Shown here in pieces: positions 20,170 through 39,192 of a DNA stretch of 64,000 bases. This DNA comes from an uncultured Gammaproteobacteria bacterium (GTDB taxonomy: Bacteria > Patescibacteriota > Microgenomatia > Daviesbacterales > UBA10151): positions 21,253 to 85,252 of the forward strand of contig CAYWKL010000001.1 in NCBI GenBank assembly GCA_964459095.1, read 5' to 3'. The position numbers and the translations under genes were made by a program. Positions within the stretch are counted from its first letter, which is position 1; every line of letters starts with the position of its first letter. Under the pieces are notes generated by a model. The model was not told the DNA's origin. It ran no database searches and worked only from the letters and a program-made list of their open reading frames with translations.

Positions 20170-21041
20170 TGTCTTAAATATCTGTAGTATGCCCTTGGGA
20201 ATCTTAATGAGGAAAAAAAAGAAAAAATAATTCCAGGAACTCCATCTAAAATCCCTTTATGCCTTATTAAAGTCATAAAAAACCAAACAGATGGTTTAAT
20301 TAAAAAGTAGTTAATTCCTTCAAAAATATTTTTTTGAACATGTTCACGAATAAGTTCATCTTTAATTAAATTTACATACCTAGAATTCCTATCAAGATAT
20401 CTTTTAAAGGTTGGGTCTGCAATATGAAGTAAGTCATTTTCTAACCAACCCACCTTTCCATTCACTACAATTTGCTCATGTACGCTTTTGCAAGGAAAGT
20501 ATGCTTTTCCTTTTTTTACCAACCTTATTACTCCATCCGGATAAACACCTCCGTACTTTAGAAAGCTTCCAAGAAAATAGTTTAGACGCGGTATAAAAAA
20601 TGCACAATATTCTTTAGTATCTTTGCCTATATTTCCATCTCTTTTCTCAAGCAAGGCTACATGTTCCCTGAATAATTTTCTTTTTTTTAATCCTTTCTCG
20701 TATTGATCAACTTCCTCATCTTTCATATTCAAAACCAAAATTATCTCTTTTCCTAAGGACTCAGTAACTCTTTCATCCGCATCAAGTTGCAGAATCCACT
20801 CATTAGTGGCTGCATCAAGTGCTTTTTGTTTGTTTATATGAAATATTGGTGGGTTTTCAGTCTCAATGATTTTTGCATTAAATTTCCTAGCAATTTCAAG
20901 AGTATGATCGCTAGATCCTCCATCAACAACAACGACTTCTGAGGCTATATTTTTTACTGAGCTCAAACATTCCTCTAGTGTTTTTTCTTCATTATAAACA
21001 GCAAGCACAATTGATAAATTTTTCATATTATTTAGCTGCAA
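20166..21041 (-). CDS. GT2-family glycosyltransferase (KdtX/WaaE-like)
   Basis: 'LSIVLAVYNEEKTLEECL…VVVVDGGSSDHTLEIA…QLDADERV'. Confidence 0.8.
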   Translation of the reverse strand: MQLNNMKNLSIVLAVYNEEKTLEECLSSVKNIASEVVVVDGGSSDHTLEIARKFNAKIIETENPPIFHINKQKALDAATNEWILQLDADERVTESLGKEIILVLNMKDEEVDQYEKGLKKRKLFREHVALLEKRDGNIGKDTKEYCAFFIPRLNYFLGSFLKYGGVYPDGVIRLVKKGKAYFPCKSVHEQIVVNGKVGWLENDLLHIADPTFKRYLDRNSRYVNLIKDELIREHVQKNIFEGINYFLIKPSVWFFMTLIRHKGILDGVPGIIFSFFSSLRFPRAYYRYLRQ

Positions 21042-22647
21042 TTAAATAAAAAGCCGTACCACCATCTGGAAAATAAACTATTTTCTTAATTTCAAAATCA
21101 TTTATGTATCTTAATCCATCATACTGACTTGAAGTAACTACATAAAGCCTTGCTGGTTGAGGAAAAACCTCAATTGGTTCCCAGTACTCAAATATATATC
21201 TGTCAAACGCGGAAACTAGATTAAAACTCCTAGTGTGTGAATTATTATACTCGACTTCTTTAACATATTCCTCTAATGGCTTTTTTGTATAGAAAAGGAA
21301 AAAAATATAAGGTTGTGATCTTACGTTGGTCATATAAACTTCTTTGTATTCTGGGTGTTTTTGTACATATTCAACAATTTGCTTCATACCATATTGCCAA
21401 TCTATAGCATACCTTTTTGCATATTCTGAATAATATTTTTGGCAATATTGATTAAAGTTCAAAAGAAAGAAGAATAAAAGTATAAAGCCTGTGATTATCT
21501 GAACCCAGCCCAATTTAGAAATGGTTAGGAACCTATAAATTCCGTAAGCCTCAATTATTTGCCAACTACCTAGAGAAAACATAGCTCTTGCCGCATGAGG
21601 TACTTCTGTACTAAATGAGGCAGCAAGGGGTGCAAGTATCGCTACAATTAAAATCACTAAGCCTGTTTTTTTTCTCGATAATAAAATTAGCACCGAACCC
21701 AAAATTAAAAAGGGTAGATCTAGCAAATAAAATTCTCCTGTTACTCGTGAGGATAATCTTGGATTTTTATCCCCATTTTTAAAAAGATAGTCGTAAGAAA
21801 AGTGTGATAAATAATTACTTAGAACTACGTTTACTTTTCCTAAACTTAAATTCTCGGTTTTAGAGAAAATATAAGTTTTTTTGGCTAAATCATCAGGTAT
21901 TAAGGTTTGCTTTGCTCGCGAAATTCCTAAAAGAGCTGGGTTAAAAAATACTACTCCTCCAATCAAAAATATTAAGATTAAACCAATTAATAAATCAGTC
22001 CTTTTGCTTTTTAGCTCATTGTAAAAAAGTACAAAAAGTAAAATTAAAACAATAGGGACAATAATTTTGGGACTATGATAACTTAAAAAGGTAACCCCAA
22101 AAGTAAGAAAAGAGAGCCCTAAAAATCCATTTTTTTTATCAAGGCCTTTAAAAAATAAATAAAGACTAAGCAGGAAAAAGAAAACTGTGAAGTTTAACTC
22201 ATGATTAAATCTTGAAAAATGAATAGCATATGGCGAGATGGCTAGCAGAAATGATGCTATTAGCCCTATTAAATTATTTTTAAAGACAACTCTTCCAAGA
22301 AAGAAAATTATTAAAACATTTAATGTCCCAAAAAATACTGAGGGCAATCTAACGCTAAGTTCTGAAAGCCCAAGGATCTTTACAAAAATAGCAGTTAAAT
22401 AAATATGAACAGGGTGCTTGTCATCCAAAAAGGAAATAAAATATGCTGGGAAGAAATTCCCTCTCTCATCTCTTCCATAACTCGCGATTGTCCATGCATT
22501 ATAACCTACTGCAGCCTCATCCCAGGAAATAGATGGAGGTACCTCTGTAATTTTATAAATCCTTACAATACCAGCAAAAGCAATAATAAGTATTAAAATA
22601 AACCAAACTTTATACTTAAAAACTTGTTCTAATTTATTCATATACAC
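21028..22647 (-). CDS. GT-C glycosyltransferase, PMT/ArnT-like (GT39/GT83-type), paralog 1
   Basis: N-terminal TM, then 'PPSISWDEAAVGYNAWTIASYGRDERGNFFP' (loop-1 DE motif). More than 10 helices. Soluble C-terminal domain. Confidence 0.7.
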   Translation of the reverse strand: MYMNKLEQVFKYKVWFILILIIAFAGIVRIYKITEVPPSISWDEAAVGYNAWTIASYGRDERGNFFPAYFISFLDDKHPVHIYLTAIFVKILGLSELSVRLPSVFFGTLNVLIIFFLGRVVFKNNLIGLIASFLLAISPYAIHFSRFNHELNFTVFFFLLSLYLFFKGLDKKNGFLGLSFLTFGVTFLSYHSPKIIVPIVLILLFVLFYNELKSKRTDLLIGLILIFLIGGVVFFNPALLGISRAKQTLIPDDLAKKTYIFSKTENLSLGKVNVVLSNYLSHFSYDYLFKNGDKNPRLSSRVTGEFYLLDLPFLILGSVLILLSRKKTGLVILIVAILAPLAASFSTEVPHAARAMFSLGSWQIIEAYGIYRFLTISKLGWVQIITGFILLFFFLLNFNQYCQKYYSEYAKRYAIDWQYGMKQIVEYVQKHPEYKEVYMTNVRSQPYIFFLFYTKKPLEEYVKEVEYNNSHTRSFNLVSAFDRYIFEYWEPIEVFPQPARLYVVTSSQYDGLRYINDFEIKKIVYFPDGGTAFYLIAAK

Positions 22648-24157
22648 TAAATATTGCTTTTCCGGAGAGATCTTTTATAGTTTTTGTCTTTTCTCTACTA
22701 CCAACGTATTCCCCTGGTTTAGCAAATATAATTAGTTTCTTGTCTTTCTCGTTTTCTAATTCACTCAAGTTAAAGGAGAAGTTATTAAAGCTTTTGACTA
22801 AAGAATGTCCCCATTTATCTGGAGGATTATATTCAACTGTTTTTTGGAACTTATCAGGAGGAAACTCTAAATAGTATAAAGCAAATATATAAGGTTGCCC
22901 TAAATAATCAGATATGAAGACTTTATCGTATTTTCTTAAATCAATACTCCCTTTAAATATTTCTTTATAAGGGTATTGCCAATCTAAAGAGGATCTTAAG
23001 TTGTAGTTTTTAATAAAATCATAAAAATAGGCGAAGAAAAAGATAGCATAAAAAAACAATACAACGCAGTAGAAAAATCTTAACTTGAAAGCATCCTTTA
23101 AATAAACAATTCCATAAGCAGTAATGATAGATATAAATGGTATAAATAAAATAGCCCTTAGGGCATGAGGCGATTCTTTGCTGATTGCCGCAGGAATTAA
23201 ACTCAAAAATAATATATAGAAAATTACACCTGACTTTTTTTGTTTTTGCTTAAGGACCGCAAAAATTCCCACCGAAATAAAAATAATATCTAGCAAATAG
23301 AGCATCCCTCCAAACCCTGTGTGGCTTCTTAAGTTTTTGTCTCCATTTGTAAAAAGAAAGTCAGGGCTCAAATCTGATAAATAGTTGGAAGTGAAATTAT
23401 ATAATACATTTACTGGACTATCTCCCTGGCTTAAAATACTGGTAGTCTTAAATCTTGAAGTTTGCTCAACGACATTTAACTTAAATGCAGGATAAAAAGA
23501 TATAAGAAATAATAAAAGAAGCAAGGGTAAGTAAACCAAACTCTTTCTATTTAAATTTTTAAGCCAACTAATAAAAACCCATATAAGAAAAAGGGGAGTA
23601 ATTATTCTAAAACTGTTATAGCTGTAAATGCTCGGTATAAAGGCAAGGATTGTTACTAATTTTACTAAGAAAGAATTTTTGGAGTTCAAAAAAGAAAAAA
23701 ATCCAAGACAAAAAAATGCTATACCTGCTGTTGCCTCAAAACCCGCTCTGCTCACTATAAAAAACCAAGGAGATATGGACAATAAAAAGGAAGATAAGAG
23801 TCCTATTTTTTCTCCCTGTTTTGTAAATAGTTTCCGGCAAATTAAAATAATTAACATCATTGTTGCAAATGCATATAAACTTGCAGGAACTCTTACAGAC
23901 CATTCATTTAAGCCGAAAAGTTTTACAAAAAAGGCAACTGAGTAAATATAAACAGGTAATTTAAATTCACCAAATGCTCTAAAATGGACTGGTAAAAATT
24001 TACCCCACTCATCTTTTAGACTCTCTGATATAGAATAAGCATTATATCCAATGGATGCTTCGTCCCAGTACAAGGAGGCAGGTATTTGAGGTAAAAATAT
24101 TAATCTTGTTGAAAGAAAGAAGAGAGTTATTAAAAAAAATGCTATTTTTATTTTCAC
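22634..24157 (-). CDS. GT-C glycosyltransferase, PMT/ArnT-like, paralog 2
   Basis: 'PASLYWDEASIGYNAYSISESLKDEWGKFLP'. Same architecture as 21028..22647. Confidence 0.7.
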   Translation of the reverse strand: MKIKIAFFLITLFFLSTRLIFLPQIPASLYWDEASIGYNAYSISESLKDEWGKFLPVHFRAFGEFKLPVYIYSVAFFVKLFGLNEWSVRVPASLYAFATMMLIILICRKLFTKQGEKIGLLSSFLLSISPWFFIVSRAGFEATAGIAFFCLGFFSFLNSKNSFLVKLVTILAFIPSIYSYNSFRIITPLFLIWVFISWLKNLNRKSLVYLPLLLLLFLISFYPAFKLNVVEQTSRFKTTSILSQGDSPVNVLYNFTSNYLSDLSPDFLFTNGDKNLRSHTGFGGMLYLLDIIFISVGIFAVLKQKQKKSGVIFYILFLSLIPAAISKESPHALRAILFIPFISIITAYGIVYLKDAFKLRFFYCVVLFFYAIFFFAYFYDFIKNYNLRSSLDWQYPYKEIFKGSIDLRKYDKVFISDYLGQPYIFALYYLEFPPDKFQKTVEYNPPDKWGHSLVKSFNNFSFNLSELENEKDKKLIIFAKPGEYVGSREKTKTIKDLSGKAIFSVYE

Positions 24158-25807
24158 TTAATTTTCAACAATTTCAAAAGCTATATCTCCATTTAGAAAA
24201 TTTATAGTTTTAAGTTTTTCTTTTCTAGAAAAATCTCCATATTTACCAATAAAGAGGATTTTTTTATCTGGATACTTTTTTACAATATCTGCATATGTAG
24301 TCCCTTTATCAGCTAAATCAGGAAAATAGAACTTGTCAAAATTTAAAACTCTTATCCAATCGTAAGTTTCAAATCTATTTAAGTTAGGATCATTTTGAAA
24401 CTTACTTGGGTCATATTTAGAAAAAAATAAAGTAAACATGTGTGGCTCGCCGTAATGTCTAGAGAATACAATTAGGTCGTAGTTCTCTTTATTTCGATTT
24501 ATATAATCCACAACCTGTTTATAACCATACTGCCAATCCCTTGAATATCTTGTTGAGTACAAACCGTAGTAAAGATAAAAATAGTATCCAATAGAAATAA
24601 TGAGAATAAATATAGTAAAAAAAATAGATGCAAGAAATAGTCTGCTTTTTCTAAATATCCAACCAAAAAATATTGATAGACCATAGGCTGTAAGTACTGA
24701 ATAAGCTGGAGCTACAATAAGAGTCCTTAAAGCATGAGGGGTACTATCGTTTGTTACCGATACTGGAATAATTCCTAAAAGTATCCAAGAAAAAATAAAA
24801 AAAGCAAATCTCTCTCTTCTTTTTACAAGAAAATATACTCCTAATAAAATGAATGGTGCTTGAAAAAGAAAAAGTTCACCCATTCTCTGAACATGGTGTT
24901 GTTTATGAGGTGCTCCGCTAATAAACAAAAAGTCAGGTGTGAAGTGGGCTAAATAATTTGAAATGAAATATAAACTAACATACGTGACTCTGTTATGGAT
25001 TAAAACGGGGAGCGGATCAGGCAGATTTGAATTTCCTCTTGCTTCATTAATCCTGGGAACCAACCCTGGATCATCTGTGATACTTACGAGTTTATATCTA
25101 GCACTCCCTTCCCCACTTAAAACAAAAGGGATCATCGGAATCAAAAGAATAAAAAAAAGTACTAAACTTATTAAAAAATATTTTTTGTAATTTATTAAAT
25201 ATTTAAAATAAAATGTCCAGTTAGCTAAAAGAAATAGCGGAGTAAAAACTCTTGCGCTATTGTAGGTATACAAAGAGATTGCCAGCGGTATACTCGAGAC
25301 TACTAGGTATTTACTTTTAGAAAAACCTTTAATTAATAGCCAAAAACCCAAGAGGATCCAGAATATAGAGAAAGACGATTCAAAAGAAGCTCTTGTTAGG
25401 TGTATATGCCAAGGAGAGATACTTAATAAAAATGCAGAAATTAATCCTATTTCAAATTTTTTAAATAACTCTTTAGTGAGAAGAAAAATTAGTAAAACGC
25501 TAAGAGTCCCATAAACTACAGGTGTAATTCTAACACCAAGTTCATTTAACCCAAATATCCAAATTCCTGGAATTGAAAAATAAATTTGAACAGGAAGTTT
25601 GTACTCACCATAAGATTTAAAATGCAGTGGAAAAGATACTCCCCATTCGTCTTTTCCAGTCTTTAGAATTGAATAAGCATTGTATCCTATAGATACTTCA
25701 TCCCAGTTTAAAGACGGAGGAATCTCAGCAACTTTATATATTCTTAGAAATAAGGCTAAAAAAAGAATAAATGAAAGAAAAAATATTGTTATTTTGGTTC
25801 GTTGCAT
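24158..25807 (-). CDS. GT-C glycosyltransferase, PMT/ArnT-like, paralog 3
   Basis: 'PPSLNWDEVSIGYNAYSILKTGKDEWGVSFP'. Confidence 0.7.
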   Translation of the reverse strand: MQRTKITIFFLSFILFLALFLRIYKVAEIPPSLNWDEVSIGYNAYSILKTGKDEWGVSFPLHFKSYGEYKLPVQIYFSIPGIWIFGLNELGVRITPVVYGTLSVLLIFLLTKELFKKFEIGLISAFLLSISPWHIHLTRASFESSFSIFWILLGFWLLIKGFSKSKYLVVSSIPLAISLYTYNSARVFTPLFLLANWTFYFKYLINYKKYFLISLVLFFILLIPMIPFVLSGEGSARYKLVSITDDPGLVPRINEARGNSNLPDPLPVLIHNRVTYVSLYFISNYLAHFTPDFLFISGAPHKQHHVQRMGELFLFQAPFILLGVYFLVKRRERFAFFIFSWILLGIIPVSVTNDSTPHALRTLIVAPAYSVLTAYGLSIFFGWIFRKSRLFLASIFFTIFILIISIGYYFYLYYGLYSTRYSRDWQYGYKQVVDYINRNKENYDLIVFSRHYGEPHMFTLFFSKYDPSKFQNDPNLNRFETYDWIRVLNFDKFYFPDLADKGTTYADIVKKYPDKKILFIGKYGDFSRKEKLKTINFLNGDIAFEIVEN

Positions 25808-27378
25808 ATTTTAGAGGCATTTACTTTGTATGCAGTTAATCTATCATAACCGGAAATATCCTTGACTTCAAATTCATATTTGAGATTATGAATCCTTGCC
25901 TGAATATCTGATATTGCTACATTATCCCCTACTAACATGATCTTGCTTTTGCAATCAGCAATTTTCCAGTCAATTGGCTTAAACTTGATATTATTGACGG
26001 TATATATTTCATATACTTTCACGTCTTTCGAATAGTAGGGACTCTCAAGTTGAGAACGAAGCTCTTTTTGTAAATTTTTAGGGTCAAAACTGGTTAAATA
26101 TGCTAATCTTAATCCTGCACCAGGGTCTCGGGCTGAATCTATAATTATTTTGTAATCCTTGTATTTATTTAATTTTTGGAATAGGGAAAGGTAAACATTT
26201 CCATAATCTTTTGCCCGTTCATACTTAAATAAAATAAAATACGAGAAATAAAATGACACCAGGGATTGAATTACGATAAGGATTAATACCGCAAATCCTA
26301 TTTTGCCTGGAAAATATTTAATGATTTTAAAAAAACCTAAAGATATGATAAGTGCGAATATCCAAATAGATTCTAGAGCTCTGAGTGGATAATAACTGTC
26401 CCCAGTTAGCGCTGCAGAAACTGGAGTAATAATTATTAAGATTAAAACTAGCTTAAAAAATTTTTTGTTTAGTGACTCTCTTAAGCTTTTAATACCAAAA
26501 ATAAATGGAATAATAAATATCGTGTAAAAAACCCCAAGTGTTGGCGGCATTCTCCCGAGTGCTGATCCCAAGTCAAAGAACAAATTTCTAGGTGAAAAAT
26601 AGATTAAATATCTTTTTATAAATTCTCCCAAAAAAGAGTGTGTCGTTCCTAAATATCCGACCTCAACTAAACGCCTAGTTAAAGCTCCCGTTGTCAAAAG
26701 AAAAAGGTGCGGCATCATTAAAATGATAAACGCGAATAAACCTAAAATTAGTCCTTTTTTATGTTTAAGGAAATACTGTCTAAAAAGAAAAATGAAACTA
26801 GGTAGAAAGAGTAAGCTTATAATTCTCTCACTGTAGTAAGCATGAGTTGATAAAGCAAGAAGAGTTGTAGCAACCACAAAAAACCAAATTTTTCTTAAGG
26901 AAAGGGTAAAAAATAAAAGACTGCTAACAAAAAATAAAACTCCCAAATTCCCTTCAGCAACCAAACGGCTAAAATATATAGACCAGGGAGAAATCGCAAT
27001 AATAAGTGATGAGATAAGCGCTAGCTCTTGTCTTTTTTTAACGCTAAATAGCTCTAAGCTCAAAAAGTAAGTAATTAGAACCAACAACGTACCTGCTAGA
27101 GCAGAAACAGATCTTGCGGACTCTACTCTGTTTCCAAATATTGAAATTGGAATGGTTGCAAAATAAGTATATAACGGAGGCTGGTAGGACCCGAATGATC
27201 TAAAAAGTAAGGGGAAAGGTTGTCCATATCTATCTTTACCAGACTGCATTAGAGAAAACGCGTTATATCCATGTGACTCTTCATCCCTGTGGATTCCAGC
27301 AGGAATCTCTCCCAGCTTATAAAATCTCAGTGAAAAAGCAAGAATAAGTATAAACGACAAAAGGATTTTTGATTTCAT
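25789..27378 (-). CDS. GT-C glycosyltransferase, PMT/ArnT-like, paralog 4
   Basis: 'PAGIHRDEESHGYNAFSLMQSGKDRYGQPFP'. Confidence 0.7.
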   Translation of the reverse strand: MKSKILLSFILILAFSLRFYKLGEIPAGIHRDEESHGYNAFSLMQSGKDRYGQPFPLLFRSFGSYQPPLYTYFATIPISIFGNRVESARSVSALAGTLLVLITYFLSLELFSVKKRQELALISSLIIAISPWSIYFSRLVAEGNLGVLFFVSSLLFFTLSLRKIWFFVVATTLLALSTHAYYSERIISLLFLPSFIFLFRQYFLKHKKGLILGLFAFIILMMPHLFLLTTGALTRRLVEVGYLGTTHSFLGEFIKRYLIYFSPRNLFFDLGSALGRMPPTLGVFYTIFIIPFIFGIKSLRESLNKKFFKLVLILIIITPVSAALTGDSYYPLRALESIWIFALIISLGFFKIIKYFPGKIGFAVLILIVIQSLVSFYFSYFILFKYERAKDYGNVYLSLFQKLNKYKDYKIIIDSARDPGAGLRLAYLTSFDPKNLQKELRSQLESPYYSKDVKVYEIYTVNNIKFKPIDWKIADCKSKIMLVGDNVAISDIQARIHNLKYEFEVKDISGYDRLTAYKVNASKICNEPK

Positions 27379-27381
27379 AAT

Positions 27382-28029
27382 TTATGCAAAATATTTCTTA
27401 AAAGAACCTAGAGTATAAATTATCCCAAGACTAATAATAGAAACAATCACAGGAAAAAGCGCGATTGGTCCAAAATTATTTCCTATATCTGTAAGACCAG
27501 AAATCAATATAATTAGGGAAAAAGAAGCGGCTAGCCACTTATTAAGAAATGTGAGTAAGTAAAATGCTCCAACAAGTGCAAAGGGAAGAAAAAGTAATGG
27601 AAATTTAGAGGGAAAGTAGTTTTCGATGTCAAATAGCCTTGCTTCATTATTAAAATACTTAACCAAAGGAGGCCTTGTTTTGTTTATGTAGAAAACAAAA
27701 AGTCTATTACTTGCAAAATAAAAATCAAATTCCTTAAAAAAGTATTGATATCTATCTTTAATTTGAATTTCTTCAAGCTCTGAATTTCTAAAAATGCTTT
27801 GATCTGAAAAGTTATATAGTAAGTAACCCAAAAGAATTAAAAACAAACTACAGATCAAAAATACCCTGAATTTGGATATTTTTTTATTTACTAAGAAACT
27901 TAGTAAAGAATAGCTTAGTAGTAGGCTAGCTAGTCCTTGGAATAAATTAATTTTAAAGATCACAAAAAACCAAGATGTAAAAAAGCAAACTGTAATAACA
28001 AGAAGTACTAAAAAAAATTCTTTTCTCAT
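27382..28029 (-). CDS. Small integral membrane protein, function unknown
   Basis: Hydrophobic 215-aa ORF. The longest ORF (to 28101) overlaps upstream by 73 nt. The Met at 28029 gives a 1-nt stop/start overlap. Confidence 0.4.
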   Translation of the reverse strand: MRKEFFLVLLVITVCFFTSWFFVIFKINLFQGLASLLLSYSLLSFLVNKKISKFRVFLICSLFLILLGYLLYNFSDQSIFRNSELEEIQIKDRYQYFFKEFDFYFASNRLFVFYINKTRPPLVKYFNNEARLFDIENYFPSKFPLLFLPFALVGAFYLLTFLNKWLAASFSLIILISGLTDIGNNFGPIALFPVIVSIISLGIIYTLGSFKKYFA

Positions 28030-29450
28030 TAAATTACAAAAAGTCGCCAAATAAAGGGAAGATGCAGTTTTGAAAGGAATGTTTGAGGTCCTAAAATGCA
28101 CTCAGCTCCTTGACAAGAGATTTCATAATGAGAGTAAATATATTTAATATTAAAATAAAATCCTGTGATAATAACGAAGATTAATATTAATCTTATTAGA
28201 TTCTTTAAAAAGGAGGCTTTTAATATCTCGTTTATTATTGAAGGAAAAAGTAGAAAGCCCAAAGTCAACCTAAAACCCAGTGGCTGGATGTTTGGATTAA
28301 AGGCATTAACCAGTAAACTTCTTCCCCCAAGGAGCATACCAACTGCAATAAAAGAGGTAAAAAAATTTGCTTTTTTTATTAAATAAATAAGACCCCAACT
28401 TCCCATAATTGAAAGAAACGGAAAAAGAGGATACCTATACCAGGCAAGTAAATCACCTTCGCCTCCTGAAATCATAATTATAATAAGCCAATAAACAAAA
28501 CTAAAAGGGATTATTATTAGCTTTTTTGAAGGAGGAGAAAAAATAAAGTAAACTGCACAGAGTAGAGTAAAAACATACCAACTATCAGTAAGGGTTGTCC
28601 AGTCATAAGATGGAGAAGTAAAAAACCAAGCTAAACTTTTAAATCCAACTGGTCTAAAAGATTGAACTGAAGTAATTTTCCAGAAGATTTCTGCATCGAA
28701 ATAAATCCCATATGCAAAGAAAATTAAAATAAAAGGGATTGTAGAAAAAAAAATATAAATTGCATTTCTTATCATTCTTTGTTCAAAAAGGATAAATAAT
28801 ACCAAGGGCATAATAAAAAAGCCTGTGGGTTTTGCAAGTCCTGCAACACCACAAAGAACTGGGATTGGAAGAAGATAAATCTTTTTTCTTTGGTCCTTAA
28901 ATTTTATTAATAAAAAAATTATAATTATTAAAGATAACGCAATTAGATTTTCAGGAACTGCCATTCTTGAACTTAAAACAAATATAGGAACAGTTCCATA
29001 AATCAACATAGATAGTATTCCAACCCAAAAGTAAGTTAATTTTTTGGCAACTAAAAAAATAAAAATTGAAGTAAGGGTAGAAATAAATATAACTGGAAAC
29101 CTTATAAATGCTGTGGGGATCCAATCTGTCCTATCAGCTTTATAAAAATGACCAAACCATCCCACTAAAAGAGAAAAAAGAGGTGGCTCATCAAGCCAAG
29201 GTTTATAAAGTGACACTCCCCCTTTTGGAAGTCCTCCTTTATAATCAATCGTTCCCCTAAAAACTTCTGCCTTTTTTGGATAATCCAGAGTTGACCAAGA
29301 AACGGGAACTCCGGTTTCAACAAGGTAAATCCCTGACCAACCATAGAGCATTTCCTCAAGATTTCCCATAAAAGGGGATCTTTCATAATTGTGCGCTCTT
29401 AAAATAAATGTAAATATAAATGCCAATAAAAATATCACAATTTTTATCAT
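28029..29450 (-). CDS. Polytopic membrane protein, divergent GT-C-like
   Basis: '…KPWLDEPPLFSLLVGWFGHFY' acidic loop motif. 'GLAKPTGFF'. About 11 helices. Confidence 0.45.
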   Translation of the reverse strand: MIKIVIFLLAFIFTFILRAHNYERSPFMGNLEEMLYGWSGIYLVETGVPVSWSTLDYPKKAEVFRGTIDYKGGLPKGGVSLYKPWLDEPPLFSLLVGWFGHFYKADRTDWIPTAFIRFPVIFISTLTSIFIFLVAKKLTYFWVGILSMLIYGTVPIFVLSSRMAVPENLIALSLIIIIFLLIKFKDQRKKIYLLPIPVLCGVAGLAKPTGFFIMPLVLFILFEQRMIRNAIYIFFSTIPFILIFFAYGIYFDAEIFWKITSVQSFRPVGFKSLAWFFTSPSYDWTTLTDSWYVFTLLCAVYFIFSPPSKKLIIIPFSFVYWLIIIMISGGEGDLLAWYRYPLFPFLSIMGSWGLIYLIKKANFFTSFIAVGMLLGGRSLLVNAFNPNIQPLGFRLTLGFLLFPSIINEILKASFLKNLIRLILIFVIITGFYFNIKYIYSHYEISCQGAECILGPQTFLSKLHLPFIWRLFVI

Positions 29451-29466
29451 TTTATTAATTTTATCT

Positions 29467-30216
29467 TTATTTTAAGTTAGAGTAATATTTAAATTTAATA
29501 ATTTTATATTTATGTAATTTGTAAAAGAATAAATACAAAAAAGTCTCTAAAATAAATTTAATTCCTTTTATAACTTTTATTGAGGAGGCTTTATCATGAT
29601 ACCTAGTAGGAATAGGAATTTCTCCAATTCTAAAACCATGACTAAGTGAAGAAAAGACCATTTGTTGATCAAAAACAAAATCATCAGAAAAATTTTTAAA
29701 TGGCACTGTTTCCAAAACTTTTCTAGAATATGCCCGAAAACCTGAAAAGTGCTCAGTAAAATTAACTCCTAAAATGATATTTTCAAAAAAACAAACTAGC
29801 CGATTTATGAAATATTTAAGTTTAGGCATTCCACCCTGCAGGGCTGAAATTTTACTTTGTATTCGACTTCCAAACATAAAGTCAAATCTTCTTTGAATTA
29901 TTGGCCTGATTAATTCTTTTATTAAACGAGCGTCATATTGGTAATCTGGGTGAAGCATTACTACTATCCCAGCCTTTTCTTCTAAGGCCTTTTCATAGCA
30001 TGTTTTTTGATTACCTCCATAACCTAAATTTTTTTTATGAGTTAGTACTTTTATCCCTAAACCTTTCGCAACATCAACAGTATTATCTGTGCTTTTATCA
30101 TCAACAAGAAGTATGTTTTGTGATAAGTTTTTTGGGATCTCATTAAAAGTGTCTTGTAGTGTGCGCGCAGCATTATAGGCTGGCATAACGATTATTACTT
30201 TGCGAAAATTTCTCAT
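29467..30216 (-). CDS. GT2 DPM1/GtrB/ArnC-like polyprenyl-phosphate sugar synthase
   Basis: 'VIIVMPAYNAARTLQDTFNEIPKNL…ILLVDDKSTDNTVDVAKGLGIKVLTHKKNLGYGGNQKT'. Confidence 0.75.
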   Translation of the reverse strand: MRNFRKVIIVMPAYNAARTLQDTFNEIPKNLSQNILLVDDKSTDNTVDVAKGLGIKVLTHKKNLGYGGNQKTCYEKALEEKAGIVVMLHPDYQYDARLIKELIRPIIQRRFDFMFGSRIQSKISALQGGMPKLKYFINRLVCFFENIILGVNFTEHFSGFRAYSRKVLETVPFKNFSDDFVFDQQMVFSSLSHGFRIGEIPIPTRYHDKASSIKVIKGIKFILETFLYLFFYKLHKYKIIKFKYYSNLK

Positions 30217-31850
30217 AATTTTATAGCATAAAAAGCTGGCTCTTTATTATAAAAGTAAAAGGTTTTAAGAATTTTATTTTTTTCAACACTCTTTATAGGA
30301 ATGCTCCAAGAACTGGCAATAACTAAAGTATTTTTATTTTTTTTATCTTCTCCCCAATTTAGTTTCCTTATAGAGAATTTATCAAAAAGGACTTCTCTTT
30401 CTTTTTTCCCTAACTTATATTCATTTTGCATTTTTTGCGGGTTTAGTTTTCCATAATAGGCCAGATAATAATGTGCGCCTGTGCCAATTCTGGGACTTAC
30501 GTCCCCATATTCTGGGTCAAAAATAATTTGGTTGAAACTGCTATAGTTTGCCCAAATAAATAGTGATACTTCTTTAAAGGGATATTGCAAATCTTGGGAT
30601 TTTTCTCTTGGGTAATTAACAAAGTAAATCATTAGAAAGAAGCCAAAGTTCAAAAGAATTAGAACAGGAATTAATATATATATTGGATACCTAAACTTAA
30701 TTTTTTTTTCTTTTAAAATATTAAAGGCAAAATAAAATCCACAAGCTGATATTATATTTAGCATAGTAAATACCATTATGCTTCTGTGGGGGCTGTGAGC
30801 CTCAAAAGTTAGGCCGCTTGGTATTGTTCCAAGAATTACCCAAGCAAGGATAAATTTTTTTGCGCTAGAAAAATTGCGTAATTTAATCAAATAAATTAAT
30901 CCTAAAATAAAAAAAGGAAATTGCAGAAAATACAAAGGGCCTGAGTCAATTAACCCCTGATTGGTAAGATCAAGTCCGTCTACAAATAAAAAAGTCGGAT
31001 TAAATTGGATCAATAATCTATTAAAACTATACTTGATGATCATTAATTTTTCTTGTACGTAGCTTATTTCTGGGTTTTTTTGTTTGACAAACTGAATTAG
31101 TTCTCCAAGTACTGGATCTTGAGTTATAAACACTGTTTTCGATCTGTATTGTGCATTCGGATTTGTTAAAATAATCAGATAAAGAGGCATTAACAAAAAT
31201 AAAAAGACAAGTATTGGCCAAAAGAAAATCTTTAAATTGTAAGAGGGTTGATTTCTAAAAATTAGAATAAAGGAAATAATCACTAATGGAATAATTAGCG
31301 CATGCGAAAAGTAAGTATACATTGCTAAAGCTAATAGTCCAAAACCAAAATAAAGACTAACTCTTTTTTTAGAAAGTAAAAGACCAAAACCCAAAAGCAT
31401 AAAAAAAATTCCTGCTCCGTTTTCAAAACTTTTGCGTGAAAAAAATATTTCGAAAGGTGCTATAGCAGTAAAAAAGCTGGCTATTAGAGCTACCCGATTA
31501 TTTCTTAATAGCTTAGTAACAAAAAAGTACACTGCAAAAATGTTTAAACTCCCAAAAATTGCTGCTGGAATCCTAATGGTAATTTCTCCTCCACCTAAAA
31601 GAAAAAAGATGGGTACTGTTATATAAGTATAAAAAGGAGATTTGTAATCATTAACTGAAGTAAAAATTGTAGGTAGGAAATTACCATATATATCTTTTCC
31701 GGTTTGCGCTATAGATATAGCATCATAAAGTTGTGTTACCTCATCATGATTTAGTTGTATAGGAAACTCTCCTAACTTGTAAAATCTTAAAAAAACTCCC
31801 AGTAGAAAAATTAATACTAAAATTAAAAATTCTTTGTTCAGTTTAAGCAT
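30213..31850 (-). CDS. GT-C glycosyltransferase, PMT/ArnT-like, paralog 5
   Basis: 'PIQLNHDEVTQLYDAISIAQTGKDIYGNFLP'. Confidence 0.7.
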   Translation of the reverse strand: MLKLNKEFLILVLIFLLGVFLRFYKLGEFPIQLNHDEVTQLYDAISIAQTGKDIYGNFLPTIFTSVNDYKSPFYTYITVPIFFLLGGGEITIRIPAAIFGSLNIFAVYFFVTKLLRNNRVALIASFFTAIAPFEIFFSRKSFENGAGIFFMLLGFGLLLSKKRVSLYFGFGLLALAMYTYFSHALIIPLVIISFILIFRNQPSYNLKIFFWPILVFLFLLMPLYLIILTNPNAQYRSKTVFITQDPVLGELIQFVKQKNPEISYVQEKLMIIKYSFNRLLIQFNPTFLFVDGLDLTNQGLIDSGPLYFLQFPFFILGLIYLIKLRNFSSAKKFILAWVILGTIPSGLTFEAHSPHRSIMVFTMLNIISACGFYFAFNILKEKKIKFRYPIYILIPVLILLNFGFFLMIYFVNYPREKSQDLQYPFKEVSLFIWANYSSFNQIIFDPEYGDVSPRIGTGAHYYLAYYGKLNPQKMQNEYKLGKKEREVLFDKFSIRKLNWGEDKKNKNTLVIASSWSIPIKSVEKNKILKTFYFYNKEPAFYAIKL

Positions 31851-33430
31851 ATATCTGCTAACAAATAAACCCTTTCCGTATTCGTTGAATCTTTGAATAC
31901 CTTGTTAAACTTTACGCTTTCAAAATATCGTTTTAATCTTTTTATGTCTTTTTCAGTTACATAAGCTCTAGTTTTTGTTAAAGAATACTCGCACCGATTA
32001 AATTTCTCATCCGAGTTAATAGTCCTTATTTGCCATAGTGAACTTTGGTTAAATTTATAAGGAAATTTCAAATTCTCAAAATTATTATCTGGCCTAAAAT
32101 TTGTATTCCATGCAACATAAGGAATAATATCAGTAATAATTTTGTCAGAATAAGCAACAGGGGTATTTCCAAAACTGCTACTTGCATCATCTATCACATT
32201 TTGAATCCAGACAGGACGAATGTTGTTAGTTTTTTTAATAAAACTTATAGGAAAAACTAAATTTAAAATCAACTCAAATAAAGCAAGAATTAAGATTAGG
32301 GAAGATACTCCTAGTCTTAATTTAGAAAGACCTAATGCTATGATCATAGCTACAAATGGCATAAAAAATATAAAGGTTTCTATTGCCGAATTTTGGAAAA
32401 TTAATGGGTAGGTAAAAACAATTATAAAACCTAAAAGGAATCTATAGTTTGTCTCATATCTTATAAGGGTGTAAACTCCTATTAAAAAAGGGATTATCAA
32501 TATTTTTTCCCATACCCCTATTAGGGGAAAATTTATTACTCCTTGGCTATCAAGTTCTCCAAAAAGTTTATCTAAACTTATGTTTGAAAGGTATGAAGAT
32601 AAATTATAGGTTACGTAGTGTGTTTTATTGAAAAATATCTTGCCAAGAATTTGCGCCAAGTTAGCATCATAAACCTGCCCTCTAAGTCTATTAATACCAT
32701 TACTTATACTAAGATCATAAAAATTTAAAAAGTTATTCTCAAGTAAACTCCTTAAGCCTTGTTCAATATTAAGATAAACTATTAAACTTAAAGCAGATAG
32801 GAAAAAGGGTGTTGCGCAAATTAACCATTTATGCTTATTTCCCCATTTTTTTTGCACAAAACATATTGTATAGATTACAAATATTGGCAAGATAAACCAA
32901 GCTATTTTTTCTGTTAATATTATTAGCAGAAATAAAACAATTAGAAGGAAATAGTTTATCTTAGGTCTAATCAAGTAGTAAAATGTAAGGGCAAATAACA
33001 CTGTTAAAACTATTTCCTCATTTGGCACTTTTGAAAGAAAATAAAGGGGAGGAGCAAAAGCTACTAAAACACTCGTATACAAACTAATTGATTTATCTTT
33101 AAATAAGCTTTTTGAGATTAAATAAGAAATCAGAATTAAAAAAGTACCTATAACGATAAATGGCAATCTTACTCCTATCTCATTTTTTCCAAAAAACAGC
33201 TCTCCAAAGGCTACAATATAGGAAACAAGCGGGAGCCGATAGTCACTTAGAGAATTAAATAAAAAAGGTAAGTTTCTTCCTAGCTCATCTGTGGCGAAGT
33301 GAGAAAGTGTATACCCTCTGTACGCAATCCTCGCTTCTTCCTCGGTAAAGTATGGGAAATCAAAATTTATTAATCTAATTAAAAATCCCAAACTCAAAAT
33401 AACAATTATCAGATTTATATTTTTGGTCAT
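31838..33430 (-). CDS. GT-C glycosyltransferase-like, divergent PMT-type
   Basis: 'FPYFTEEEARIAYRGYTLSHFATDELGRNLP'. Polytopic. Confidence 0.6.
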   Translation of the reverse strand: MTKNINLIIVILSLGFLIRLINFDFPYFTEEEARIAYRGYTLSHFATDELGRNLPFLFNSLSDYRLPLVSYIVAFGELFFGKNEIGVRLPFIVIGTFLILISYLISKSLFKDKSISLYTSVLVAFAPPLYFLSKVPNEEIVLTVLFALTFYYLIRPKINYFLLIVLFLLIILTEKIAWFILPIFVIYTICFVQKKWGNKHKWLICATPFFLSALSLIVYLNIEQGLRSLLENNFLNFYDLSISNGINRLRGQVYDANLAQILGKIFFNKTHYVTYNLSSYLSNISLDKLFGELDSQGVINFPLIGVWEKILIIPFLIGVYTLIRYETNYRFLLGFIIVFTYPLIFQNSAIETFIFFMPFVAMIIALGLSKLRLGVSSLILILALFELILNLVFPISFIKKTNNIRPVWIQNVIDDASSSFGNTPVAYSDKIITDIIPYVAWNTNFRPDNNFENLKFPYKFNQSSLWQIRTINSDEKFNRCEYSLTKTRAYVTEKDIKRLKRYFESVKFNKVFKDSTNTERVYLLADICLN

Positions 33431-33441
33431 CTTTTATCAAC

Positions 33442-34920
33442 TTATTTTACATATATGCTATATTCTTCTAAAGACGATTTTATTTGTCTAAATCCTTGCT
33501 TATTTAAGGTTTCTTTATCTGCCGAACTAGCAAGTAAAACATCTCCGTCTAAAAGTTTCACTCCTGGCCTCCACATTTTTAAAGGTTTGCTAAAATAAGC
33601 TTTCTCAAAAAACTTTGCTGCGCTAGATTCCTTTTGATAATAATCCCAAAGAATAACTGGTTTAAGTTTATATTTTTTTGAATATTTAGATAGCTCCTTA
33701 AAAGTTATATTTGATGTGCTAGAAAAATCTGTAACAACCTGTCTAGGATATTCGTTCCAATAATAGGAGACAAATTCAATGTAATTTATAAAAACTAAAC
33801 ATAAAATTAAGAAAAAAATTAACTTACTTTTTTTAAGTAAAAAAGATATTCCTTGAGTAGAGATTATTGCAAAAAAAGGCATTAATGCCATTAATCTACT
33901 AGCTCTGTAAATTTGATCAGTCAGCCCGAAAAAAATAGGCGTTAGGAAAAAACAAGCCAAAGCAAAATAAAGAGGCATGCTTTTTTTGGCAACACCCTGG
34001 TAAATACCTGTTAGGAAAAAAGGTAAGGTAAAAAATAAAAACATCCCGTGTTTGCCTGTAGAATGATAAGCAGTAGCATCTCCTTTTAAGAATAAGAAAC
34101 TTAGGTCAAAGGAAGATAAATATGGAAGAAAAAAATCCTGATAATTTGCTAGATGAACTGGCTGGTTATAGTTGAGTAGTGCCCCAGGATATTTGATTAA
34201 ACCGACAGCTATGAATAAAAGTGTAGGTAAAAACCCAGCTAAAAAAAACCTAAGAGACTCCAGCTTTGATTTATTCTTTTTTGTTCTATCAAGTAGGATA
34301 GCTCCTATACCAACTAAAGCATATACAGGTACAATGAGTCTCATACCGTTATATGAAAATATACTTAAACCTAAAGAAATACTCCCCAGGAGCAAATAAA
34401 TATTGCGATTAAGTTTAAAATATTTAAACATCATTAAAATCCAAAAACATATAAAAGGCAAGGGAGCAATATTTTCACTAGCTAAATGGCTTTGTATCAA
34501 AAGCAAGGGTGACATTGAAAAAATTAACAAGCCTATTAAAGATTCTAAGTTAGCGAAAATCTGTTTTAAAATTAAAAAAAGTAAAGTAACACTAACTAAA
34601 GCTATAAAAACACTAACTAACCTTAAATTGAACAAAGATTTTCCAAGTATTTTGAAAACTATGATACTTGAATATATTGTGATAGGCTGCTTCCATTCTT
34701 TTTTGTCTAAGGTTAGAATAAACAAAGGAATAATTCTTTTATTCTCATCACGTAAAGTCTCAGATATAAGAATACTGTTTAAACCAATAGCTGCTTCATC
34801 TCCATTTATTCCAGGAGGTATAGATTCAAGTTTGTACGAAAAAATAAAGAAAAAAATTAAGGATATTAAAAAAATAAATAATATTTCTTTCTTTACGGCA
34901 ATAATTCCCAAACTTTTCAC
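33442..34920 (-). CDS. GT-C glycosyltransferase-like, PMT-type
   Basis: 'PPGINGDEAAIGLNSILISETLRDENKRIIP'. Confidence 0.6.
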   Translation of the reverse strand: MKSLGIIAVKKEILFIFLISLIFFFIFSYKLESIPPGINGDEAAIGLNSILISETLRDENKRIIPLFILTLDKKEWKQPITIYSSIIVFKILGKSLFNLRLVSVFIALVSVTLLFLILKQIFANLESLIGLLIFSMSPLLLIQSHLASENIAPLPFICFWILMMFKYFKLNRNIYLLLGSISLGLSIFSYNGMRLIVPVYALVGIGAILLDRTKKNKSKLESLRFFLAGFLPTLLFIAVGLIKYPGALLNYNQPVHLANYQDFFLPYLSSFDLSFLFLKGDATAYHSTGKHGMFLFFTLPFFLTGIYQGVAKKSMPLYFALACFFLTPIFFGLTDQIYRASRLMALMPFFAIISTQGISFLLKKSKLIFFLILCLVFINYIEFVSYYWNEYPRQVVTDFSSTSNITFKELSKYSKKYKLKPVILWDYYQKESSAAKFFEKAYFSKPLKMWRPGVKLLDGDVLLASSADKETLNKQGFRQIKSSLEEYSIYVK

Positions 34921-34923: not shown

Positions 34924-35772
34924 CTATTTCTTTCCTAACTTTTGACTAATAAATATACTTAAGCGAATTAATAAGCCAATTAGAAACCCGTGGAAGATGT
35001 TTGCACTTTTTATCTGGTAATATTTCCTTCCTGTTTTCTCTAAGGGGGTAAGTTCAGATAAAAATCCACCATTACCGGTCTTTACTTCATCTTCACTACC
35101 TCCTAGTACATGAGATATTCTTGCTCCAGGAATATAGTAAACTTTAAGTCCTACTTTTTTTATACTCCTACAAAGATCTAGATCCTCATAGTAGAGAAAA
35201 TATTTCTCGTTAAACCCTCCTACTCTTTCAAAAGTATTTTTTTTAATCATCATACATGTCCCATATGCACTTTCCACCTCAATATTGCCCCCTGTCTTTG
35301 GAGCATACTCTGAGTATAAATTTTCTTTGCCAAATACATATTCTCCTATTGCGCGATTTAATGTAGGAAGATTTCTAACCGAAGGTTGTATCTTCCCATT
35401 CATTGTAAAAATTGCAGGAACAACTATTCCTACCTTTTCATTCTTACTAATAAATTCATATAAGATTTCTAAGGTATTCTTATATAGTTTTGTATCAGGA
35501 TTCAAAAAAACTAAATAACTGTTTGAAGCTATATTTGCTCCTATATTATTTGCTACAGAGAATCCAGAATTTTCAGCGCATTCGATTAATTTTATTTTCT
35601 TTTTTTCATTTAAAGCTTTAAACTCTAATATTTTCTGGCAAGTCCTATCACTTGAATTATTATCAACAATAATTAGTTCGGAATCCTCAGAGATGCTTTC
35701 AGCAGTAGATTTAAGATATTCATCTATAGTTTTTTCATTATTGTAAGTAACAGTTATTATTGACAGCTCCAT
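34924..35772 (-). CDS. GT2-family glycosyltransferase
   Basis: 'LSIITVTYNNEKTIDEYL…LIIVDNNSSDRT'. Confidence 0.8.
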   Translation of the reverse strand: MELSIITVTYNNEKTIDEYLKSTAESISEDSELIIVDNNSSDRTCQKILEFKALNEKKKIKLIECAENSGFSVANNIGANIASNSYLVFLNPDTKLYKNTLEILYEFISKNEKVGIVVPAIFTMNGKIQPSVRNLPTLNRAIGEYVFGKENLYSEYAPKTGGNIEVESAYGTCMMIKKNTFERVGGFNEKYFLYYEDLDLCRSIKKVGLKVYYIPGARISHVLGGSEDEVKTGNGGFLSELTPLEKTGRKYYQIKSANIFHGFLIGLLIRLSIFISQKLGKK

Positions 35773-36893
35773 TAGTTTTTTATTAGATTTTTTATTTTCT
35801 TTTCAAAATGTTCTTCAGAAAATATTAAAGCCTTTTGTTTAGCATTTTTTCTCAATTTTCTAATTTTTTCCTCACTACCTTTTATTATGTTTAATGTATA
35901 CTCCTTTAACTTCGAGAGGTCATTCCATAAAAAACCATTAATACCCTGATCAATTATTTCAGGTTGACCCCCTAAGTTTATAACAACAGGAATGCATTCA
36001 GCAGACATAGCCTCCACAGTTGAAATTCCAAAATGTTCAAACTTTTTAGGATTATTTTCACCAAATCCTGTTGCGTGCCAATAAATTGAGGATTTGCCAT
36101 ATAGCTTTACCAGATCCCCAAAACTTATATTTTCAAAAAACTCAACAGGGTAATTTTTTGCAAGGTTTTTAAGGTATTCAAAGTATTTTTCATTCCCTGA
36201 ACTTAAACCTCCAGCTAAACAAAGCCTCCAATCTTTTAAGCCTTTGTCAACCATTTCTTTAAAAACTTTTATCAGGACATCATGCTTTTTTGGTTTAGAA
36301 AGTGAAAAAAAACCTACAGATAGTATTTGTTTTTCTTTTTTCAAAGGGGCAAGTTTATCTACTTCAACAGGAGGATAGATTACTTCACCCGCTAGATTTA
36401 GGTATTTTTCAATATTCTCTTTTGTAAATTGGGAATTATAAATTGCTTTTGTCCAAGATTTAAGCTTTATCTTTCCAAAAAGGCCACTAGTTTTAACTAC
36501 ATCAAGTGGTGACTGAAAATGTATGAAACTTTTTTTTGCTCCTGATAAAAAAATACTCCCATCAGATAGATAGAAGAAAACATCATATTTAGTTAAAAAT
36601 AAATACCTACTTAGAGCGTTTGAACCAATTCCAAAAGGACCTTTTTTAAAATTAACTTTAGAAAGATTTAAGTCATGAAAGAGGTGTATTTTCTTTTTTA
36701 TTAGATAAATTCCAAGAGAAAATAAATGTGCATCAAGAAGCACGTCTACACTATGCTCTTTAGATAAAACTTCTGCAATTGTTAAAACGTACCTTTCACC
36801 ACCACCTGATGTATCCAAATAGGGTGTATAGATTGCAATTCTCACTCTATTAAGTATTATACTTAATTTAAAAATTACTCTACATATCCCCAA
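35772..36893 (-). CDS. GT4-family glycosyltransferase
   Basis: 'FGISTVEAMSAECIPVVINLGGQPEII'. Confidence 0.8.
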   Translation of the reverse strand: MGICRVIFKLSIILNRVRIAIYTPYLDTSGGGERYVLTIAEVLSKEHSVDVLLDAHLFSLGIYLIKKKIHLFHDLNLSKVNFKKGPFGIGSNALSRYLFLTKYDVFFYLSDGSIFLSGAKKSFIHFQSPLDVVKTSGLFGKIKLKSWTKAIYNSQFTKENIEKYLNLAGEVIYPPVEVDKLAPLKKEKQILSVGFFSLSKPKKHDVLIKVFKEMVDKGLKDWRLCLAGGLSSGNEKYFEYLKNLAKNYPVEFFENISFGDLVKLYGKSSIYWHATGFGENNPKKFEHFGISTVEAMSAECIPVVINLGGQPEIIDQGINGFLWNDLSKLKEYTLNIIKGSEEKIRKLRKNAKQKALIFSEEHFEKKIKNLIKN

Positions 36894-39172: not shown

Positions 39173-39192
39173 TATTAAAATTTATCATATCA

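Follow-up and report, generated by a model that had tools for sequence, protein, structure and literature searches.

Why do membrane transferases of the GT-C fold stand again and again beside small family 2 glycosyltransferases (GT2) of the DPM1 type in one gene cluster, and is each GT2 tied to the transferase next to it? The question is raised by a stretch of 64,000 nucleotides (nt) from an uncultured bacterium, positions 21,253 to 85,252 of contig CAYWKL010000001.1, which we call the window. A first look at its letters, the sequence-only reading, had proposed several distinct polyprenyl-phosphate sugars, each with a dedicated transferase. We have found one co-directional array of 35 genes, uninterrupted on the minus strand from position 60204 down to 12822 (48 kb). 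It likely builds a glycan of the cell envelope, mostly at the membrane's outer face, by multi-component transmembrane glycosylation. The observations behind this reading are of four kinds: gene content, enzyme class, conserved order and fusions.

The scheme that we propose is the following; genes are designated by their lower coordinate. At the cytoplasmic face six GT2s of the DPMS/GtrB/ArnC class would load polyprenyl phosphate with single sugars taken from nucleotide sugars. The lipid-linked sugars would then cross the membrane. This step could fall to either of two Wzx-type proteins, to 62386 through its GtrA/DPMS-TM domain, or to the membrane module 27382. Finally, 17–21 membrane transferases of the GT-C fold would consume them as donors. 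A further unit on the plus strand, similar to Arn, would comprise an aminotransferase, an acetyltransferase::GT2 protein and a GT-C-like protein with a sugar-binding domain. Enzymatic activity, flipping, donor sharing, the identity of the sugars and the acceptor are the parts of this scheme that we infer.

The array itself says little about pairs. The G+C content is about 30% across the whole window, and the open reading frame (ORF) coordinates of the sequence-only reading are exact, with every ORF it named on the minus strand. Its start at 60204 for the gene 59500 agrees with the source gene call (P0121, 234 amino acids, aa); a longer ORF runs 59500–60240. The overlaps of 17, 4 and 4 nt, which it had quoted for its three groups, are correct on re-measurement, and the one of 17 nt (57276/57260) hinges on a TTG start: with an ATG six codons downstream there is a 1-nt gap instead. 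As evidence for pairs these overlaps carry no specific information, since all 34 junctions of the array are overlaps or gaps of 39 nt at most. Such junctions show one transcription unit, without coupling specific to any pair, and we have rejected overlaps as a sign of pair coupling because they are common to the whole array. Recognisable GT-Cs make up 16 of the 35 genes; the chance that a GT2 has one immediately downstream is about 0.47. Three of the four short GT2s have a GT-C in this position, which is not significant (P about 0.27). Adjacency being at chance level inside the window, only other genomes can tell whether the pairs are meaningful.

The short GT2s of the array are 59500, 57260, 29467 and 15964 (234–249 aa). 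They match Pfam Glycos_transf_2 with 74–98 bits, and the DDGS.D and D.D positions are almost invariant in their alignment. In NCBIfam they come closest to ArnC, PgfS, PpgS, AglJ and a haloarchaeal dolichyl-phosphate-hexose transferase. The nearest subfamilies are ArnC/PgfS for 59500 (Pfam 97.5 bits; ArnC first, 74 bits against a cutoff of 529) and for 57260 (97.6 bits; PgfS first), AglJ/PpgS/DPMS for 29467 (75.8 bits; AglJ and PpgS first) and PpgS for 15964. A sequence search of the PDB with 57260 gives GtrB (4.7e-14), ArnC (2.8e-13) and DPMS (1.8e-11); with its AlphaFold2 model (pLDDT 88.7) ranks 1–24 of Foldseek are all ArnC/GtrB/DPMS, in alignments of 232–254 columns for a model of 247 residues. 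For 29467 a family profile of 30 members finds PfDPMS at 2.4e-13, the next PDB match being at 4.4e-8, and the top six Foldseek matches of its model (pLDDT 86.4) are again ArnC/GtrB/DPMS. From sequence and predicted fold we conclude that the short GT2s are putative polyprenyl-phosphate glycosyltransferases of the DPMS/GtrB/ArnC class, of the kind without transmembrane (TM) helices; DPM1 likewise has none. The sequence-only reading had assigned them to lipid-linked donor synthases, and this class is upheld.

These enzymes do not form one recent duplicate family: their mutual identity is only 22–37%, by which recent duplication is rejected. Both GT2s of the pairs described below have their own orthologs elsewhere, at 52–74% identity for the 57260 type and 58–69% for the 59500 type. 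The short GT2s thus appear to be old, divergent paralogs, each conserved individually, and a distinct sugar for each of them is plausible. A metagenome search with 15964 found only three relatives, with 27–28% identity. Two other proteins of the class, 5532–6653 on the plus strand and 62386–63567, bring the number of DPMS/ArnC-like GT2s in the window to six; the sequence-only reading had recognised the class and counted five. Among the GT2s of the window only 62386 bears a GtrA_DPMS_TM domain.

Two pairs stand at the head of the array, both on the minus strand. Pair 1 has a TM-less synthase of the ArnC/GtrB/PgfS-like clade (59500..60204, 234 aa; Pfam, NCBIfam) and a PMT_2 GT-C of 498 aa with about 11 TM segments (58007..59503; 43.7 bits, GDE after the first TM segment, TM1). 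Pair 2 has a TM-less synthase of 248 aa (57260..58006; Pfam, PDB matches, AlphaFold2 model) and a PMT_2/PMT GT-C of 509 aa (55747..57276; PMT_2 44 bits, PMT 23.3 bits). Close homologs of 57260 and 59500, with 58–85% identity, are numerous, and the named ones belong to Candidatus Daviesbacteria and other Patescibacteria. The order of the genes of 59500, 58007, 57260 and 55747 type, followed by PTPS_related paralogs, is kept in six other genomes: L081/L082, L083/L084, L085, L086, L087 and L088, which include metagenome-assembled genomes (MAGs) named Daviesbacteria and Staskawiczbacteria. A Wzx gene lies inside the 20 kb examined in four of the six, and in two of them a protein of about 1150 aa then follows. 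The GT-Cs of the pairs have 48–59% identity with their orthologs (58007, 48–53%; 55747, 49–59% in the six genomes) and at most 30% with any paralog. In all six the ortholog of 55747 is found downstream of that of 57260, with 0–2 genes inserted.

In L081/L082, L083/L084 and L088 pair 1 is a single GT2::PMT_2 protein of 722–731 aa, which aligns end to end with 59500 plus 58007; the latter is its C-terminal part. We have made an exhaustive search with 59500 over 1.84 billion representative proteins and considered the 150 best clusters. Among these, 30 have 600 aa or more, and at least 17 are GT2::GT-C fusions (14 with PMT_2, two with YfhO, one with GT87). Three long proteins of the clade bear GtrA_DPMS_TM; one of them, P0286 (923 aa), has the order GT2-GtrA_DPMS_TM-PMT_2: all three classical components in one chain. 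As judged from their domains, the fusions are independent evidence that the GT2 clade of 59500 works with GT-C enzymes. The pairs 55747/57260 and 58007/59500 of the sequence-only reading are thus borne out by ordered orthologs in six genomes and, for pair 1, by fusion in three: we take both as real units of a predicted synthase and then its transferase. The long relatives of 59500 also include a YfhO-GT2 fusion with the reverse domain order, as well as P0348 (1210 aa).

A third group had been proposed, with the two GT-Cs 28029 and 30213 around the synthase 29467. The latter (29467..30216, minus strand, 249 aa) is a TM-less, DPMS-like GT2 of a widespread family, as seen by Pfam, the family profile and AlphaFold2. 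Next to it comes 28029..29450 (minus strand, 473 aa), a PMT_2 GT-C with 42.8 bits in which EE replaces DE after TM1, and then 27382..28029 (minus strand, 215 aa; source gene call P0241), a polytopic membrane module with about six TM segments, defined by its homology to a fused ortholog. The family of 29467 has at least 595 homologous loci in many phyla, with 45–63% identity. An adjacent co-directional polytopic protein is present in at least 27 of 80 of its loci. Such neighbours were sorted by a TM filter and Pfam, since hidden Markov models from the window paralogs lack the sensitivity that distant GT-Cs demand. Of the 32 that were scanned, at least 18 proved to be GT-Cs (16 PMT_2, with a few more PMT, GT87 or DUF2298) and three are LPG_synthase_TM. 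The family is therefore often, not always, beside a GT-C. In other phyla (L005, L007, L008, L087 and further loci) a GT2 of this family or a neighbouring one stands beside LPG_synthase_TM (MprF flippase-type) or TPR-containing PMT_2 proteins, a possible sign of other flippases and of proteins as acceptors.

The window paralogs mostly recur one to one as orthologs in the closest loci, L001–L003, where their order is shuffled; the four GT-C paralogs of 21028..27378 are among them (37–62% identity). The GT-Cs found there beside the ortholog of 29467 correspond as orthologs to 40966, 25789 or 24158. No gene of L001–L003 has 30213 as its best match in the window, and 28029 is matched only weakly, at 23%. 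The flanking GT-Cs are thus not conserved partners, and the third group does not hold in the form in which it was proposed. What is conserved is a different partner: in L001 and L003 the ortholog of 29467 has about 470 aa, with an extra C-terminal polytopic domain which is homologous to 27382 (Smith-Waterman z of about 12 and about 6 against shuffled sequences; controls below 1.5). A homolog search with 27382 returns only itself and one relative with 44% identity; as homologs are so few, the link to the fusions rests on these pairwise statistics. By this homology 29467 and 27382 are the putative halves of a split membrane-anchored synthase, with the GT-C 28029 inserted between them. The module 27382, and neither 28029 nor 30213, is the predicted lineage-conserved partner of 29467. 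The comparison suggests that the ORF 27382–28029 need not stay a hypothetical protein and codes for a partner of the synthase.

How many GT-Cs are there for these synthases? PMT_2 or PMT is above its gathering score in 12 window proteins: 58007, 55747, 40966, 33442, 31838, 30213, 28029, 25789, 24158, 22634, 21028 and, on the plus strand, 60228. For 28029, 30213, 55747 and 58007 the PMT_2 scores are 29–44 bits, with a gathering score of 26.1. PTPS_related/YfhO is assigned to 54041, 52390 and 50742, and PIG-V to 17991. The protein 36875 (495 aa) is related to 58007 by BLAST (23% over 473 aa). In total 17 GT-C genes are recognisable by Pfam or BLAST, and up to 21 with profile-profile matches. The GT-Cs of the window have 9–14 hydrophobic segments. 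The motif DE follows TM1 in nine of 13 aligned paralogs and EE in two, while 60228 and 36875 have no clear motif. For 58007 there was no match in a sequence search of the PDB.

With about six synthases for 17–21 GT-C-type genes, the idea of a dedicated transferase for each sugar does not hold. GT-Cs exceed synthases about three to one, so that one-to-one dedication cannot be general and several GT-Cs must share a donor. A strict version, in which each DPM1-like GT2 makes a different polyprenyl-phosphate sugar that is consumed only by the adjoining GT-C, finds support in the conservation of pairs 1 and 2, in the fusion of pair 1 in relatives and in the different NCBIfam subfamilies of the GT2s; in Streptococcus mutans the anomer of Glc-P-Und differs between SccN/SccM and SccP/SccQ (PMC11754754). 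We nevertheless think it improbable, given the numbers and the fact that the GT-C neighbours of the 29467 ortholog vary among L001, L002, L003 and the window. Sharing is also known elsewhere: the product of SccN is used by a further transferase (PMC11754754), the three systems of Lactococcus lactis have one flippase in common (PMC8035078) and mycobacterial decaprenyl-phosphate-arabinose is a shared donor (PMC11127046). In the window, 29467 probably feeds several surrounding GT-Cs rather than one dedicated partner.

The upper part of the GT-C count depends on remote candidates. The three PTPS_related/YfhO-like paralogs (50742..55750, minus strand; 569, 560 and 558 aa) follow pair 2 in all relatives. 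Only one of them is above the PTPS_related gathering score; all three are tied to PMT_2 by hhalign (98%), with their DD/DE motifs aligned. Next comes 49481..50752 (minus strand, 423 aa), a polytopic, GT87-like probable GT-C: it has no Pfam match, hhalign relates it to PMT_2 (90%, E 1.4e-6), and L088 has, in the same place of its block, a protein of 419 aa with a weak GT87 match. The two large polytopic proteins 42579 and 44560 (42579..47982, minus strand; 662 and 1140 aa) are paralogs with 31–33% identity. Neither has a Pfam match, even at E up to 5, and a PDB search with the 662 aa protein is also empty; hhalign relates their family to PMT_2 (90%, E 1.5e-6), possibly as remote GT-Cs. A protein of about 1150 aa after Wzx is kept in relatives. 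From these profile comparisons, PTPS_related and three unannotated polytopic families of the locus are probably GT-C relatives. The 1140 aa protein (44560–47982) shares with 13946–15967 (673 aa) an exported N-terminal domain of about 400 aa, with 39–40% identity and no Pfam match.

On the plus strand there is another candidate unit. It starts with genes for amino-sugar nucleotides (856..5524; Pfam and NCBIfam): a GFO 3-dehydrogenase, a hexapeptide acetyltransferase, a DegT protein, a short-chain dehydrogenase/reductase (SDR) of the dehydratase type and a second, ArnB/PseC-like DegT protein. The first three (856–3439, with a 3-dehydrogenase similar to that for UDP-GlcNAc) resemble a 3-acetamido sugar set of the WbpB/WbpD/WbpE type. 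They are followed by 5532..6653, a NeuD/PglD-type N-acetyltransferase fused to an ArnC-like GT2 (Hexapep plus GT2; NeuD family 58 bits, ArnC 73 bits), the GT2 domain of which has 38–39% identity with the pair 1 fusions of L081, L083 and L088. Only 12 nt further on starts 6666..9401, a protein of 911 aa with a polytopic N-terminal half and a C-terminal F5/8 type C domain (38.8 bits). Its N-terminal half has DD after TM1 and an hhalign match to PMT_2 (82%, E 1e-5). It is probably the GT-C partner of 5532, and the two are likely to form a fifth unit of synthase and GT-C.

From 3436 to 9401 the order is thus SDR dehydratase, ArnB/PseC-like DegT protein, acetyltransferase::GT2 and a GT-C-like protein with a discoidin domain. 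This is like Arn (ArnB/ArnA/ArnC/ArnT) in having an SDR, an ArnB/PseC-like aminotransferase, an N-acyltransferase, an ArnC-like GT2 and a GT-C-like protein. Unlike Arn, a NeuD/PglD-type acetyltransferase fused to the GT2 takes the place of the formyltransferase, and the GT-C-like protein has a discoidin-type domain. The Arn equivalog cutoffs are not reached by any window protein (ArnC 73–74 against 529, ArnB 290 against 631, ArnA 57 against 777, with the SDR part only and no formyltransferase). Bacteria of the candidate phyla radiation (CPR) are not known to make lipid A. In its gene content this arm resembles Arn in logic without being a predicted member of that system.

Several observations weigh against the mechanism that we propose. 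None of the four short GT2s has C-terminal TM helices such as those of GtrB, ArnC and PfDPMS. None reaches an NCBIfam equivalog cutoff (325–529): the best scores are 44–80 bits, from which the class can be assigned and the sugar specificity cannot. The soluble GpgS appears at rank 7 for the model of 29467 with a nearly equal score, and the alignment behind this model was built only from paralogs of the proposed class, which is a possible bias. Some long relatives of 59500 are fused to GT4, GT2 or DegT domains (GT4::GT2, DegT::GT2) and not to a GT-C. Added to these are the chance level of adjacency inside the window and the GT-C status of 42579/44560, 49481 and 6666, which rests on hhalign probabilities of 82–90%, inflated for membrane proteins. 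Neither a stand-alone GtrA nor a priming phosphoglycosyltransferase was found among the window proteins. The host, probably a Daviesbacteria-like member of Patescibacteria (CPR), has been deduced from the names of homologs.

The points that concern the GT2s would fit another explanation: the short enzymes could be ordinary cytoplasmic transferases that extend a lipid-diphosphate oligosaccharide, like the soluble GT-A enzyme GpgS in fold, and their place beside GT-Cs a by-product of a dense operon. We consider it very unlikely. Their top matches in sequence and structure are three solved lipid-phosphate enzymes, fusions to PMT_2, YfhO, GT87 and GtrA_DPMS_TM have arisen recurrently and independently, and the order of synthase and then GT-C is kept in six genomes. 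Synthases without TM helices and with a separate membrane partner are known as well, GacI/GacJ and PpgS/Rv3632, and the TM-less subtype has been characterised in GacI (10.1101/180810).

Multi-component transmembrane glycosylation thus remains the preferred reading, and we can ask which acceptor it would serve. We lean slightly towards a glycan flipped by Wzx, lipid-linked or wall-linked, as the main one. The same mechanism could instead act on proteins (S-layer proteins, pilins, disordered regions rich in Ser/Thr) as an O-glycosylation system, which we regard as possible and rather less probable. The families PMT/PMT_2, similar to protein O-mannosyltransferases, and YfhO would suit it. Streptococcal proteins are O-glycosylated by GtrB with the YfhO-family PgtC2 and by PgfS with PgfM1/M2 (PMC12041528), 57260 finds its best NCBIfam match in PgfS, and TPR-PMT_2 proteins accompany some members of the 29467 family in other phyla. 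On the other side, a lipid-linked oligosaccharide is favoured by two flippases of the Wzx type and by eight GT2/GT4 enzymes of the cytoplasm, and in L085 there is a LytR_C protein inside the block. The non-enzymatic proteins of the window have no Ser/Thr-rich tract (at most 28% S/T per 40 aa), and its GT-Cs have no TPR or MIR domains in Pfam.

The rest of the array, all on the minus strand, fits between these groups. Its flippases of the Wzx type are 47975 and 16750, and there are also five classical GT2s and three GT4s. The first flippase, 47975..49453, matches Polysacc_synt_3 with 189 bits and keeps its place behind the PTPS genes in relatives. The region 34924..42582 contains the PMT_2 GT-C 40966, the classical GT2s 40038, 39193, 38363 and 34924, the GT4 35772 and the GT-C-like 36875 of 495 aa. 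Then there are three PMT_2 GT-C paralogs in 30213..34920 (492, 530 and 545 aa; 29–42 bits), 30213–31850 included, and four PMT_2/PMT GT-C paralogs in 21028..27378 (529, 549, 507 and 539 aa; Pfam). The tail, within 12822..21041, has the GT2 20166, the GT4 19135, the PIG-V-like GT-C 17991, the Wzx protein 16750, the TM-less GT2 15964–16710, the exported protein 13946 of 673 aa and the GT4 12822. The gene 13946 overlaps the preceding 15964 by 4 nt; its C-terminal TM region has a score of 15.2 bits with DUF2304/GacJ, below the threshold of 25.5, and we have rejected this identity except as a lead. Between the two glycosylation blocks, 9396–12851 codes for a DUF5667 secreted protein, an S-adenosylmethionine methyltransferase, a membrane protein of 304 aa without family and an SGNH/GDSL hydrolase-like protein, which may be glycan-modifying enzymes.

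At the head of the array a short PMT_2-like membrane protein is encoded divergently (60228..61373, plus strand, 381 aa, 37.1 bits). It has orthologs in L081 and L083 at the same divergent position, with 62–65% identity. The start codons of the array and of this gene are 23 nt apart, and in L083 the same layout has 49 nt. With a spacing of 23 nt at 60204–60228, promoters must lie inside coding sequence. Further on, 62386..63567 (minus strand, 393 aa) is a GT2 fused to a GtrA/DPMS TM domain (GT2 80.5 bits, GtrA_DPMS_TM 70.4 bits), with an ortholog in L083 (60% identity). Sugar-nucleotide genes and an extra SDR epimerase are found upstream of such a fusion in relatives: the rml set is full in L081–L083, L085, L086 and L088, and partial in L087, without RmlC/RmlD. 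This context could mean a lipid-linked 6-deoxyhexose donor. The window ends inside that SDR gene, at 63591–63932.

The locus can be compared with known systems. Three- or multi-component transmembrane glycosylation is well established (PMC8035078, PMC11127046), with CsbB/YfhO and GacI/J/K/L as multi-component precedents (PMC8035078). Several pairs of synthase and GT-C with distinct lipid-linked donors may be present in one organism or cluster: L. lactis has csdAB/CD/EF with CflA (PMC8035078), Bacillus subtilis has CsbB/YfhO, YkoT/YkoS and YkcC/YkcB, and S. mutans has SccN/M and SccP/Q (PMC11754754). Like GtrA/GtrB/GtrC, CsbB/GtcA/YfhO, CsdAB/CD/EF and the Scc pairs, the window has a GT2 polyprenyl-phosphate-sugar synthase beside a GT-C, a pattern to which pairs 1 and 2 conform by gene order, conservation and class of enzyme. 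It differs in the lack of TM helices in its synthases and of a stand-alone GtrA; GT-Cs exceed synthases about three to one in a single array of 35 genes, the pair is naturally fused in relatives and the host belongs to the CPR.

In the Gac system of group A Streptococcus the TM-less synthase GacI is stimulated by the small membrane protein GacJ, to which it is fused in some species, and the same is found for PpgS/Rv3632 of Mycobacterium tuberculosis; flipping is proposed to be the task of a protein of the Wzx family, and the last transfer is made by a GT-C (10.1101/180810). The couple 29467 and 27382, together with two Wzx genes, is similar to GacI/GacJ/GacK/GacL and to PpgS/Rv3632. Unlike GacJ, the module 27382 has 215 aa and about six TM segments, and in Pfam the DUF2304 (GacJ) signal is absent from modules of its type; a stimulating role for it would be hypothetical. 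A third likeness is with mycobacterial arabinogalactan and lipoarabinomannan (PMC11127046) and with N-glycan and glycosylphosphatidylinositol assembly in the lumen of the endoplasmic reticulum (ER): a few lipid-monophosphate donors are common to many GT-C paralogs, and the window has a PIG-V-like and possibly a GT87-like member. Unlike those systems, all its genes are in one array and no DprE, phosphoribosyl pyrophosphate or arabinose genes have been seen, so that the resemblance is one of logic only.

The loci L001–L003 (CAZCNP010000002.1, CAZTVZ010000002.1 and CAZAXL010000003.1) have a G+C content of 32–39% and are titled 'uncultured Gammaproteobacteria'. Gene for gene they share their locus with genomes named Daviesbacteria, and the Gammaproteobacteria label of these MAG records is probably wrong.

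The mechanism itself is well known; what is notable here is its scale, the CPR host lineage and the fusion proteins in relatives. In the literature that we searched there is no paper on such arrays in Patescibacteria or on natural synthase::GT-C fusions, an absence limited to that literature. The locus suggests gains in annotation: PTPS_related and three unannotated polytopic families would become probable GT-C relatives, and 27382–28029 a candidate synthase partner. As genomic evidence of an independent kind, the fusions of synthase, flippase-type module and GT-C support the three-component model. They are also attractive for structural work on an unsolved step, the passage of a lipid-linked monosaccharide across the membrane to the GT-C. 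A bolder and doubtful possibility is that in a CPR lineage a complex surface glycan is for the most part put together outside the cytoplasm, with about six lipid-linked monosaccharides and about twenty GT-Cs. The fusions would then act as machines complete in themselves and pass the lipid-linked sugar on across the membrane from synthase to transferase, those with two domains without a free flippase and those with three by an in-built GtrA-type module. If this were true, the locus would match, within one operon, the assembly of arabinan/mannan in mycobacteria or of glycans in the ER lumen. In any case it gives a concrete picture of how uncultured bacteria with reduced genomes may build their surface.

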